A stretch of 25,301 bases of DNA from Candidatus Heimdallarchaeota archaeon. Its GTDB lineage: Archaea > Asgardarchaeota > Heimdallarchaeia > Heimdallarchaeales > Kariarchaeaceae. The position numbers were made by a program, and so were the translations under genes. The notes beneath the pieces are model-generated. The model did not search any database and was not told the DNA's origin. It worked only from the letters and a program-made list of their open reading frames with translations. This document shows positions 1,460 to 7,107 of the stretch, one piece after another; position 1 is the first letter of the stretch, and each line of letters starts with the position of its first letter. The stretch is from contig WAKA01000097.1 of assembly GCA_015523565.1 (NCBI GenBank), positions 1-25,301 of the forward strand. Direction: 5' to 3'.

Positions 1460-4400
1460 TCAATCATCTCCGAAAGAAGAAAGATAAGTGTAAAAAGGAG
1501 TCATTTGTAAAATTTCACCGTTCCAAGATTCGTTTTTCCTTATATAAGAAACAACAGTTCCTTGATGTTCAGATAAGTGCATTAAAGTAAAAGGGGAAAG
1601 GGGATCAAGTTGGTAAGTGGGCAATTGAAAGATATCAAGGAACAATTTCTCAGTGAGAAAATGATATCGATCGTTTAAATCTGAGGGGATTTGAGATAGT
1701 TTTTCATAAACAGGATAACTAGGCAGGACAGAGTTGAGATTGGGGATGAATTTGGTGATTGGAACTTTGAAGAATTGTTTGGAATCGATTCCCAGGAGGA
1801 TAAATGCGTGGGAATTACGGGAAATATCTGCAAGCATTTGGAAGAATTGAAAGAGACGGGTTTTTGTCTGATTATTGTATTGCCCTTCAAACATTGCAGG
1901 AGTCAATTTAGAAAGCTTGTATGATCTAGAGATTACAGCAGCCTTTATTTTCGCATCCAATGATGCAATCAGTTTCTCTTTTTTTAGCCTAAATTTTAAT
2001 TCAGCTTGTTTTTTGAGACTATTATATTCTTTTTGTGAGACATTGTCAATTCCTTCCAAATATAGGTCAAGTTCTCGTTGTATCATTTCTGGAGCTTTGT
2101 TTTCCAACTCAATTATCTGAGATCTTGCTTTTTCCCAAAGATGCAGATAATAATCTTCGTCAGAAAGATTCTTTGCCTCTTCAGGAATATATTCTTCTTT
2201 AATTGCAAGGTGAAATTGTGGAAATACAACAATGCTACCAGGAGGAATTGGAGTAAGTATCTGTTTAAACAATAAGGCAAGACCAGATATTCCAGTAATT
2301 TCTTGGACATCAACAACCTTGATTTTTAACCTTTTTTTCAAGTTATCTGGGGATTTGATACCGCAGGATTTGAGAGCCAAATCAAACATGTTGTTTTGTT
2401 GAAGCCAAATGATTGGAGGGGATGGGGATTTTGTAGTCAGATTCTGTTTTTTTTGCAGATACCGCAATTGAATAAGCTGTAAAAGTATAAAGGGATAAAT
2501 TTCAGAACCACCCATTATGATCTGAAAAGGATTGAGGTTTGAAGAATTCAATAGACTTGTCATTTGATATGTAAAAACACCATCCAAGTAGTTTTGATAG
2601 AATGGATTATTTGATGTATCATTTGAAAGAATTTCAATAGGACCATGGTTTCCCCAAATGGTTAGGCAATAAAAATTGTTTACACGTAAAGATGAAACCC
2701 TCCAGAAATTTTTACCATAGATGGATCGGAATAGTTTTGGAAATTCCTCCCTACGTTGTTCAACAATGACAACAGAATCCTCCCCACCAAAAACAGGTAA
2801 TTGAGAGAGAGGAGTCAATAGAGTCTCTGGAGAAGGATTAAGCATTCTACAGAGTATAGAGGAGGAATGTTCATTATGATTTTTACAAATATCCAAAGAA
2901 ATATGGTTATTGGAGGGAATGCTGGTTTCATCCCAATATTCCTCAAGAACAGCCACTATTTTTTCTGGGAAAAATGAATAAAGAGATTTTAAACTAAACC
3001 TATTGGAACATACCTTGACTTTTCTGGTAACTGCAAGGTAGGCGACAAAATGAAGGAAAGCTACATCGGGATCAATTGATGAGGAATAATAGATTATTGG
3101 ATCTTTCTTATCAATCAATTTTGCAATTTTTGGAGTGATGAAATCAGTGTCAACAGGCATATATTTTTTGGAATAAGAAGACAAAAGGCGGTGTCTCAAA
3201 CGTAAATTTTCAATGTTTTCGACTGTTGCGACAATATCCTGCGGATTGTTTTGAGCCACCAAATTATCAAGAACATGTTGAGGGATCCATTCAGGGATGT
3301 CCTTGTTAAGATGATTGGTAAGTTCGGCGGCTTTTTTCAATTTCTCATTCATTTCATGGACGTTGTCAATTGTTGGGAGTTGGTTGATATCACATGACCA
3401 TTGTTCAGTGATTTTGTCTATTGGATATCGTGAAAAATTAAGAGAGTCAAAAAAGGAAGTTAATTCAGCAGAATTTGAACAGAGCCTCATAATTTTTCGA
3501 TATACGTTAACCACCAATTCGTCATTTTTGGGTCGGTTCAGAACAAGGGACATAAAAGATGGTTTTGATGGCAATTGATAGTCTTGAAGGGATTCAGCAA
3601 CTGCAATAATGGCAAAGACCTCTTCTTCATATTGCAATCCCTTTGGGGAGATATTGAATTTTGTAATGATTTTTGGAATAAGCGTGATGACATCTTTTTT
3701 CGTGACACCAGGAGGCAATGGCATAGCCATGTTTCTGATTATTTCAGCAGCCCCCCTAACAACACCCAATCTCTTCTTTTTGTTTTCAAATTCACCGCCG
3801 GATTTTGCAATGATACCTGATTCTTGAAGTTCATACTTATATTTCAAAATGCCAGTTTCTTTGATGGCCAATATTTTCTTGAGTTCCTCGTTGATATTTT
3901 TTGGAACGATTTGTCCATATCTTTGTGCGTACAAATGCCGAAACATGAAATAGAGGTATTTGGCGATTGTGGATCCTCTTTTTGGTTGGGGTGAATTGGT
4001 CAGCAATTGAAGGAATTTTTGATGGTAATAGTTTTTGTAGTCTTCTTTAAGAACAATCCATGGTTCTTGACTGAATTTTGAAAGTATTTTGAGAACCTTG
4101 TTATTTTCAAGAATTTCCCTTGTCTTCTTTTTATTGTCATGAGTTTTTATTATCCTATCTGCAAATCCTTTGCCCTTGAATTTCACCAGTTGAGAATATT
4201 TCAATTCGGAATGCTTTGTCATCAATTTTTGGTTAACAGCACAACTCAAGGACGGATAATTATCCAAAAAAGAAGTTGCAAATCGTGTTTCATCAAGGCA
4301 GCGTTCATCACCATAAAGCATAGCAAACTCCTTTTTCAGACGGGAGTATTCCGCATCAAGTTCCTTCAAAGTTTTCTCCCTTTTGGAATTTTTTTCTGAC

Positions 4401-4465
4401 CAGTATATAGCAGGAGAAAACAGACCATCATTTTTTTTGGGGTCGCGTGGGTTTAATGCTGACAT
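1460..4465 (-). CDS. 1001-aa multidomain protein: putative TFB-like cyclin repeats plus inactivated RadA/RecA-like domain(s) with a coiled-coil insertion
   Basis: The long ORF is clearly real; the domain call is by-eye alignment only. aa ~85-330 resemble the TFB core. aa ~645-895 follow the RadA ATPase motif order (FQIIMGG / IIWLQQNNMFD / GSIVVFPQFHLAIKEEY / TKTRLFQFFQMLADISRNSHAFILLG) but lack Walker A GKT and Walker B D. Confidence 0.5.
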   Translation of the reverse strand: MSALNPRDPKKNDGLFSPAIYWSEKNSKREKTLKELDAEYSRLKKEFAMLYGDERCLDETRFATSFLDNYPSLSCAVNQKLMTKHSELKYSQLVKFKGKGFADRIIKTHDNKKKTREILENNKVLKILSKFSQEPWIVLKEDYKNYYHQKFLQLLTNSPQPKRGSTIAKYLYFMFRHLYAQRYGQIVPKNINEELKKILAIKETGILKYKYELQESGIIAKSGGEFENKKKRLGVVRGAAEIIRNMAMPLPPGVTKKDVITLIPKIITKFNISPKGLQYEEEVFAIIAVAESLQDYQLPSKPSFMSLVLNRPKNDELVVNVYRKIMRLCSNSAELTSFFDSLNFSRYPIDKITEQWSCDINQLPTIDNVHEMNEKLKKAAELTNHLNKDIPEWIPQHVLDNLVAQNNPQDIVATVENIENLRLRHRLLSSYSKKYMPVDTDFITPKIAKLIDKKDPIIYYSSSIDPDVAFLHFVAYLAVTRKVKVCSNRFSLKSLYSFFPEKIVAVLEEYWDETSIPSNNHISLDICKNHNEHSSSILCRMLNPSPETLLTPLSQLPVFGGEDSVVIVEQRREEFPKLFRSIYGKNFWRVSSLRVNNFYCLTIWGNHGPIEILSNDTSNNPFYQNYLDGVFTYQMTSLLNSSNLNPFQIIMGGSEIYPFILLQLIQLRYLQKKQNLTTKSPSPPIIWLQQNNMFDLALKSCGIKSPDNLKKRLKIKVVDVQEITGISGLALLFKQILTPIPPGSIVVFPQFHLAIKEEYIPEEAKNLSDEDYYLHLWEKARSQIIELENKAPEMIQRELDLYLEGIDNVSQKEYNSLKKQAELKFRLKKEKLIASLDAKIKAAVISRSYKLSKLTPAMFEGQYNNQTKTRLFQFFQMLADISRNSHAFILLGIDSKQFFKVPITKFIPNLNSVLPSYPVYEKLSQIPSDLNDRYHFLTEKLFLDIFQLPTYQLDPLSPFTLMHLSEHQGTVVSYIRKNESWNGEILQMTPFYTYLSSFGDD

Positions 4466-4603
4466 TCAAAACAATATTCTCGCCAAACCCCCTCGAAGTT
4501 TCAGTCAGGGAATCAGGTTTTTTTTACCAACATGATTCTGGACTTAAGGAGTTTATATATTGAAATTAAGAGATTGTTCAAAACCAAGCGAAAATTGCAC
4601 GAA

Positions 4604-4744
4604 TTTTGTCCTAATTTTAGAAAATAGAGAACAGCACATCCATGGCAGGTTTTTGGATTAAAGAAAACAGGAGTTCAGTTTCTTAAATATCATTTTTTGT
4701 TTTTCAATCAGGATCGGAGTATTTTTGTCCTAAAATTAGAAAAT
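4604..4744. promoter_or_regulatory. Pair of 22-bp near-identical dyad-containing repeats (candidate operator sites)
   Basis: TTTTGTCCTAATTTTAGAAAAT at 4604-4625 and TTTTGTCCTAAAATTAGAAAAT at 4723-4744. The cores CTAATTTTAG and CTAAAATTAG are reverse complements. Both lie in the ~510-bp intergenic region upstream of the 1001-aa gene. Confidence 0.45.
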
Positions 4745-6257: not shown

Positions 6258-6314
6258 AGTTCTCAGGAATAGAGAACAACTTAGCTTTATAAAAGAAGAG
6301 AGGAATTAAGAGAA

Positions 6315-6788
6315 TTATGCAGTCATAAGGTAATCATTAAAAATAACAGGTAATTTAGAAAGGTCTTCTGCGTAAATCGATATTAGTTTCAGTCCCAAAG
6401 CCATATAGATTTTCTTTTTGTTTTCCAATTTTTGGCGATATTCGTCACCAACCTTATTCTTGAGATTTGCCAAACCCCAATACTCAACATAGACATCGAA
6501 ATCGACAAGATAAAAGTCAGTTCTATAGGGGGTTTGTTTAATCGGAATTTCATAGAGGTACCTGATATTGTTCTTTTCCAAGAATTTAGCAATTTGTTTT
6601 TCACCTTTACTTTTGAATTGCCAGTTTTTATGGGGTGAGATTTTACCATAAGGGGAAAAGTATTGCTTAACTGCAAGAGAAGATCCATTGTTTTTTTTTG
6701 TGGGAGACTTATTGATTAATGAAAATGCAACAATGATGAATGCAATCCAAGGGATATATTCAACAATAGGAATAACCAAAATTTCCAC
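6315..6788 (-). CDS. Membrane-anchored PD-(D/E)xK / Vsr-DUF559-like endonuclease-domain protein
   Basis: N-terminal hydrophobic helix (IPWIAFIIVAFSLI), then KSKGEKQIAKFL...YLYE...YRTDFYL...VYVEYWG...Y...K...Y...LISIY, the pattern of small restriction-endonuclease-like domains. Confidence 0.7.
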   Translation of the reverse strand: MEILVIPIVEYIPWIAFIIVAFSLINKSPTKKNNGSSLAVKQYFSPYGKISPHKNWQFKSKGEKQIAKFLEKNNIRYLYEIPIKQTPYRTDFYLVDFDVYVEYWGLANLKNKVGDEYRQKLENKKKIYMALGLKLISIYAEDLSKLPVIFNDYLMTA

Positions 6789-7107
6789 CTATGAAAATGG
6801 TTTGCAGTTCAGAGAGTAAATCTAGTTCATCATTTTTTGTCAAGATCAATAGCCTTAGTGAGTCCAACAGATTTTTAATTGACCTATGATCACTAAGTGA
6901 CAATGGGGTGGTTCGAAACTTGAGGACTGAAGCCTTGATTTTGTATTCAGTGATTGGAAATACCTCAATCAAGTGCAAAAGGATAAATCGGAGGACTGGT
7001 TCATCGAATTTGCTACCTACAAGAGACAAAGAGTATGGAAATTCAACCTCGTGAAGAGGAATTGGAGAAGCCAAGATATTTGAAATCTTTCCAACAGAAA
7101 AATGCAT
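6760..7107 (-). CDS. Hypothetical protein
   Basis: 115-aa ATG ORF overlapping the start of the nuclease gene by 29 bp; fills the space up to the divergent promoter region; no recognised motif. Confidence 0.55.
   Translation of the reverse strand: MHFSVGKISNILASPIPLHEVEFPYSLSLVGSKFDEPVLRFILLHLIEVFPITEYKIKASVLKFRTTPLSLSDHRSIKNLLDSLRLLILTKNDELDLLSELQTIFIGGNFGYSYC

Follow-up and report, generated by a model that had tools for sequence, protein, structure and literature searches.

Gene Content of the Locus

The window analysed here is a whole 25,301-nucleotide (nt) stretch of DNA, contig C97 (WAKA01000097.1) of the 3.57-Mb assembly of a Candidatus Heimdallarchaeota archaeon (genome label G000), for which the source reads stem from a hydrothermal-vent metagenome. 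Central to this work is a gene on its minus strand (1460–4465) encoding a protein of 1001 amino acids (aa), in which the reading frame, a structural model, fold searches and homologs together point to a TFIIB-like core connected by a helical linker to two catalytically dead RecA-fold domains. The gene is the last of four co-oriented minus-strand open reading frames (ORFs) of 115, 157, 426 and 1001 aa and is followed by that for a 342-aa protein whose N-terminus contains a hydrophobic segment. As a first-pass annotation of the DNA had described, this group lies divergent from genes for an OB-like protein, PCNA and GINS, and a canonical-type radA is present elsewhere in the window (22145–23428); eRF1 is a further neighbour. 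Independent contigs span positions 1–6388 as one piece and carry no indel in the 1001-aa frame, and the fusion is therefore not an assembly error.

The same annotation had proposed the four ORFs as a candidate module, a view that was not borne out, and they do not make up a single operon. The 157-aa ORF, a predicted membrane-anchored nuclease, and the 115-aa ORF belong with the OB/GINS locus instead, and neither is part of the core module. Separate TATA boxes serve the 115-aa ORF, the 426-aa RadA paralog and the 1001-aa gene, the latter two being 511 bp apart.

Domain Architecture of the 1001-aa Protein

Modelling of the 1001-aa protein from a 17-row alignment gave a predicted local distance difference test score (pLDDT) of 80.9 and a predicted template modelling score of 0.56, values at which the individual domains are reliable and their mutual arrangement is not. 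Folding from the single sequence was useless (pLDDT 38). The N-terminal half (N-half) opens with a conserved, family-specific motif (aa ~30–70), which precedes a TFIIB/TFB-like core of two cyclin-type repeats (aa ~111–344; 3434–4135, minus strand) that emerged from fold searches of the model. In a whole-protein structure search over 48,161 chains, human BRF2 (8ity_V) aligned with this core at Z 8.7 over 198 residues, with a root-mean-square deviation (rmsd) of 16, and was the sole non-P-loop entry in the top 50; models of viral TFIIB also matched the N-half (probability 0.89–0.97, E 0.025–0.1). We consider it quite likely that the N-half adopts a two-cyclin fold. Its designation as TFIIB-like is a purely structural one, and from it we infer a TFB-like function. 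No zinc ribbon was found, there being no CxxC motif in the N-terminal 120 aa of the homologs inspected and no Pfam ribbon match, and profile searches returned no PF00382 match in the N-half. A permissive alignment of N-half and TFB profiles ran colinear over both repeats, yet scored no better than a reversed control. The predicted complex of the N-half with the genome's TBP scored 0.12 against a mark of 0.32, which gives no answer and is not evidence either way.

The C-terminal half (C-half) is, in the model, a tandem KaiC-like double RecA fold, in place of the single RecA domain annotated previously. Whole KaiC chains align across model residues 426–983 (329–345 residues, rmsd 8–9), from which follows a second, reduced RecA-like domain at aa ~441–614 (2624–3145, minus strand), ahead of the RecA fold at aa ~619–995 (1481–2611, minus strand); the top Foldseek matches of the 1001-aa model are all KaiC (E 3e-4). 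The RecA-fold matches of aa ~619–995 have an rmsd of 3–4 over ~190–205 residues, with Z scores of 13.3 for RAD51, 13.0 for RadA, 12.9 for FlaH, 12.8 for BcsE and 12.3–12.4 for KaiC CI, and with all of these tied, structure does not separate a RadA from a KaiC/FlaH ancestry of the C-half. Comparison of the C-half with RadA by hhalign was not significant (E 0.04–0.09). The Walker A lysine, catalytic glutamate and Walker B aspartate occur in neither RecA domain across the homologs. A helical insert of ~95 aa (1901–2188, minus strand), placed by secondary structure, alignment and RadA register, follows the Walker-B strand and a helix and so sits at the position of RecA loop L1; it is found in every C-half homolog that covers the region. 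At the level of fold, then, both earlier domain calls stand: a TFB-like core that lacks the zinc ribbon, and a dead RecA fold in which a helical insert takes the place of loop L1. At the level of sequence, Pfam, NCBIfam and PDB searches with the protein and its alignments gave nothing significant, nor did profile comparisons with TFB, divergent TFB, KaiC and RadA; an ESM Atlas feature search returned no usable N-half match and, with the C-half, nothing beyond weak helicase-like leads, and an Atlas shape search with the protein returned weak rows only.

Fused, Split and Stand-Alone Homologs

Homologs of the 1001-aa protein are few and comprise those of three other genomes of the genus, that of genome G007 and about a dozen metagenome proteins. 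The large gene is fused in G000, G001, G002 and G007 and at loci L052 and L062, and is present as two separate genes in G003 and L053, with 4-bp overlaps, and in L049 and L050, with an extra gene between the halves. These intervening genes (L049:7755-9224 and L050:10030-10962) are of low complexity or coiled-coil type, and the proteins of both contigs are strikingly rich in DRSI-like words. With an extended profile, stand-alone N-half homologs were found in G006 and G008, where the copies are expanded; two of the genes are divergent from the PolB gene of the cluster described below and one heads a run of membrane-protein genes. A 258-aa neighbour in G006 gave no match to the C-half profile. 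Among the 200–400 genomes of the phylum searched, no other family yielded N-half homologs, and weak phylum-wide matches (pyruvate-formate-lyase-like, Cdc6-like and winged helix-turn-helix proteins) were judged to be due to chance. Since split and stand-alone forms exist, the TFB-like half is the wider unit and the RecA half a sometimes-fused partner, so that a filament-docking domain cannot, as a general mechanism, deliver a covalently attached TFB.

The RadA Paralog and the Wider Cluster

Upstream of the large gene lies the 426-aa RadA paralog (4977–6257, minus strand; Pfam Rad51, 2e-36), with an N-terminal domain and intact Walker A, catalytic glutamate and Walker B motifs. Its score of 153.7 bits falls below the RadA equivalog cut-off of 259, and the FxxA polymerisation motif is altered, reading IRSF in the aligned columns. 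The paralog was matched in 39 of 61 genomes, and in a FastTree phylogeny of the RadA family, midpoint-rooted and with no outgroup from other phyla, these proteins form an order-wide clade apart from canonical-type RadA and group by family. The link between RadA paralog and large gene is conserved across relatives, the paralog standing immediately ahead in 7 of the 8 other loci that include this flank: the two are immediate neighbours in G001, G002, G003, L049, L050 and L062. In G007 they are on different contigs, each of which breaks off in the same gene between them, so that a single gene may separate the two. A different gene stands upstream of the large gene in L052. RadA-family genes in G000 number five, and not two as first counted. 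Those at 22145–23428 of the window and at C156:49220-50515 are close canonical-type genes, 78% identical and with a doubled N-terminal helix-hairpin-helix region, and two more divergent members reside on contigs C128 and C95. In G006 and G008 the cluster or its vicinity contains two RadA-family paralogs per genome (L060:1145-2260, L061:7284-8588, L059:10498-11181), and in three more distant loci (L049:3026-4276, L050:4709-6028, L058:2439-3434) a UbiA-family prenyltransferase gene precedes the RadA paralog.

The conserved unit extends in the direction away from the nuclease. An ORF check revealed a missed 44-aa ORF with a single transmembrane (TM) segment directly after the large gene (1324–1458, minus strand), its stop overlapping the next start, and a hydrophobic micro-ORF occupies the same place in eight other loci. 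Next comes the 342-aa surface protein (299–1327, minus strand), which by its sequence has a hydrophobic N-terminus and a probable C-terminal anchor, and which comes after the C-half gene wherever a locus extends that far. The window then breaks off within the start of a ~1060-aa orphan of a ~1100-aa class (3–248, minus strand; tblastn). The cluster continues on contig C116, the end of which overlaps window positions 1–347 at 96%. Found there are genes for two small TM proteins, PolB, an XPD-type helicase and a ~220–240-aa protein, then for a TM protein of 248 aa, a protein of 422 aa and another ~1100-aa orphan. The whole is an order-wide cluster of roughly 20 kb that combines DNA-repair with cell-surface genes. 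Its gene order of RadA paralog, large gene or genes, micro-ORF and surface protein recurs in genus-level and in more distant loci, and in other families this RadA paralog is surrounded by a similar set of genes, which in some includes one for a Hel308-type helicase. The G003 cluster additionally contains a 2120-aa surface protein, whose 2138-aa ortholog is unlinked in G000 (C143:9221-15637). Two further observations concern G003: its cluster (L010 and L056) is without PolB at the usual place and in opposite orientation relative to OB/GINS, and a gene for another ~200-aa protein follows OB where PCNA is expected.

Promoters and a Candidate Operator

The large gene has a long leader. Alignment of loci placed its TATA box at 4545–4560 (minus strand), 79–92 nt ahead of the start across five genus-level loci and with a conserved downstream flank, and in five loci direct-repeat boxes are present near −265 and −146. 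Box 2 (4602–4625, minus strand; core GGACAAAA), detected by matrix search 54–59 nt upstream of the TATA box, is a putative operator; box 1 (4721–4744, minus strand; locus alignment) lies 111–126 nt further upstream. A matrix made without G000 returned box 2 of the window as its top match genome-wide. The direct-repeat pattern, chosen after being seen, occurs in 2–3 copies per locus versus 0.01–0.06 expected. No genome-wide regulon was found for the upstream box: the other matrix matches are mostly in coding sequence, and the operator therefore looks specific to the large gene. At 4855–4880, about 400 nt before the start, a second copy of the TATA motif of the large gene is present in G000 only, possibly as a duplicated promoter.

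The promoter of the RadA paralog (6285–6303, minus strand), found by promoter scan, has its TATA box at −36 and an all-pyrimidine tract in the position of the B recognition element (BRE). The BRE zone is A-rich genome-wide in G000, and cluster genes are T/C-rich there instead. The median number of pyrimidines before the TATA box is 5/7 for cluster genes versus 3/7 for control genes (78 versus 108 promoters, a set that includes related genomes and some duplicates, so that its p-value overstates the difference). In G000 the 6 promoters of the cluster supply 3 of the 10 all-pyrimidine promoters among 543, and the unlinked giant surface-protein gene on C143 also has a pyrimidine-rich BRE zone. The genome encodes two canonical-type TFBs, one divergent TFB and one TBP; the divergent TFB, which has a zinc ribbon, occurs order-wide, in 63 of the 83 genomes of the class. 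Directly before the gene of the divergent zinc-ribbon TFB in G000 (L129:2168-4208, on C75) is one for an intact single-domain KaiC-like ATPase, an adjacency seen only in G000 and G001 and not order-wide.

Proposed Function and Alternatives

With confidence that falls somewhat short of even, we favour the reading of the 1001-aa protein as a lineage-specific regulator of transcription that acts on a larger Heimdallarchaeial cluster. The genes of this cluster would handle DNA at the cell envelope, most likely in DNA uptake or exchange followed by recombinational repair. A factor binding the two boxes would control the large gene, and the two-cyclin core would act beside TBP at the non-standard promoters of the cluster as an auxiliary or alternative TFB. 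Lacking a B-ribbon, the core would need a partner for the recruitment of RNA polymerase. The tandem dead RecA module might serve as a partner without catalytic activity, retaining or freeing the TFB-like core via protein contacts, and not as a recombinase; KaiC-type regulators (CirA, FlaH) and pseudo-ATPases act through protein contacts. The TFIIB-type matches from two structure libraries argue for this reading, as do the pyrimidine-rich BRE zones of the cluster promoters and of the unlinked giant surface-protein gene, the gene order that recurs in nearer and more distant loci, and the fact that stand-alone TFB-like homologs adjoin cluster PolB or membrane-protein genes in G006 and G008. A precedent exists in TFB3, which acts downstream of Orc1-2 to switch on ups and ced (PMC13324097, PMC6061795).

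Several points weigh on the other side. A Z score of 8.7 for a helical domain lies within the range of common arrangements, the domain having been compared only within the whole-protein search, and the N-half has no significant sequence similarity to TFB, its hhalign E values of 0.14–0.67 equalling those of reversed-profile controls. Pyrimidine-rich promoters also occur in families where no N-half was detected, and there the divergent TFB could be the better candidate for a promoter reader. No Ced or VirB component was identified among the TM and ~1100-aa proteins with Pfam and NCBIfam. A broader proposal, possible though doubtful, would have a DNA-uptake or -exchange regulon of Asgard archaea with its own promoter class, driven in this family by a ribbon-less TFIIB core that is gated by a tandem RecA/KaiC pseudo-ATPase sensing the state of a partner recombinase or of the envelope machine.

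The same parts could be put to the opposite use, which we regard as rather improbable: as a repressor or decoy, the ribbon-less core would bind TBP–DNA without recruiting polymerase and block the cluster promoters, with the divergent TFB as activator and the RecA half as a FlaH/BcsE-like scaffold tying the protein to the envelope machine. The absence of a zinc ribbon from all homologs checked would suit such a role, as would a pyrimidine promoter type more widespread than the 1001-aa protein, the order-wide full-length divergent TFB and the presence of FlaH and BcsE among the tied best fold matches; a truncated TFB can however activate, as TFB3 shows (PMC6061795). The first-pass annotation had proposed an SOS-like switch, in which the dead RecA domain co-assembles with a RadA filament on single-stranded DNA and thereby releases or delivers the TFB-like core. 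In favour, the second RecA domain fits RAD51/RadA and the RAD51 paralogs no worse than any other structure, a RadA-like EY motif and long helix are retained in it at the matching register, and a RadA paralog is the conserved upstream neighbour. We nonetheless find this switch unlikely given the tandem KaiC-like layout, the helical insert at the DNA-binding L1 position, the loss of canonical FxxA from the RadA paralog, the separate halves in G003, L049, L050 and L053, the TFB-like half that stands alone in G006 and G008, and the placement of the G007 RadA paralog and fused gene on different contigs.

Descent of the cluster from a domesticated conjugative or integrative element is given similarly little credence. 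The direct repeats would then be iteron-like and the helical N-half an initiator or regulator, with PolB, the helicase and the degenerate ATPases as remains, which would account for the additional PolB and helicase, the rapidly evolving orphans, the shuffling of gene order, the patchy distribution and the expanded N-half copies of G006 and G008. Against such an origin, no integrase was seen within the loci examined, the GC content of the cluster resembles that of its flanks, the position next to PCNA/GINS is constant within the genus, the RadA paralogs cluster by family in the tree, and the repeats hold a fixed distance to the TATA box. Very improbable, finally, is an uptake module of all four genes, with the membrane nuclease cleaving DNA as it enters and so supplying the RadA paralog. 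Both the TM anchor and the nuclease motif are kept in 8 of 11 other genomes of the family, but the nuclease adjoins the RadA paralog in just three close genomes (G000, G001 and L062) and the promoters are separate. Of the uptake/recombination module put forward earlier, the link to uptake and recombination fits the wider cluster, whereas the membrane nuclease is not a conserved part of it.

Relation to Known Systems

TFB3 retains its zinc ribbon and is without one cyclin repeat. The 1001-aa protein has the reverse architecture, to which two dead RecA folds are added, fused or paired, and it is not classed as a TFB3. The Sulfolobales pathway from Orc1-2 via TFB3 to ups and ced (PMC6061795, PMC13324097) would nevertheless be alike in having a truncated TFB paralog under an upstream operator, in its tie to surface-contact and DNA-handling genes and in a T-rich element near the TATA box. 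It differs in that no Ced or Ups homolog was identified in the present cluster and that the boxes found here are unlike ANTTTC. With TFIIB, TFB and BRF2 the modelled protein would share two cyclin-type helical repeats, but it is without a B-ribbon, has about 6% identity and no significant profile match, and carries a fused pseudo-ATPase. KaiC, FlaH/ArlH, CirA and the BcsE pseudo-ATPase domain are comparable as non-catalytic RecA scaffolds and in the tandem arrangement of RecA folds, which aligns with the two halves of KaiC, whereas the C-half has lost both Walker sets, has a reduced first domain and holds the ~95-aa helical insert. As to the RAD51 paralogs (XRCC3, RAD51C) and archaeal RadB/aRadC, the core fold is shared and the C-half neighbours an active-type recombinase paralog; unlike them, the C-half is doubled, has no Walker motifs whatever and has L1 replaced by a helical hairpin.

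Literature searches found no description of a TFIIB–RecA/KaiC fusion or of the cluster, and the fusion was in no family library searched. What the present work adds is the protein's confirmed folds and tandem layout, its split and stand-alone forms, the putative operator boxes and micro-ORF, and a module from which the nuclease is excluded. The DNA-damage response and DNA exchange of Asgard archaea are poorly known, and they bear on the abilities of the eukaryotic ancestor before meiosis. A candidate regulator, operator and promoter class can now be named, which are testable in vitro from purified proteins without culture of the host. If true, a gated ribbon-less TFIIB core would connect a basal transcription factor directly to a sensor of RecA fold.

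Neighbouring Genes

The 157-aa membrane-anchored nuclease (6315–6788, minus strand) is of PD-(D/E)XK type, as judged from its match to the T7 endonuclease I profile (E 5e-4), and has invariant E63, D91 and E102, with a tryptophan at the lysine position. In G003 its gene is 30 kb from the RadA paralog, beside OB/GINS, and in G005, G006, G007, G008, G010 and G011 it is on other contigs. Family homologs of this membrane form often end in zinc ribbons, and a UvrD-type helicase at L125 (G052 C153) contains this nuclease domain as an insertion. The 115-aa protein (6760–7107, minus strand), to which no fold was assigned, is present only in G000, G001 and L062, as seen from the loci of relatives. Elsewhere in the window, a 484-aa orphan (11831–13285), kept in the genus beside Yip1 and eRF1 genes, has a weak match to a crescentin rod (E 4e-4, far below cut-off), and amidohydrolase and kynureninase genes (13401–17167) suggest part of a kynurenine pathway.

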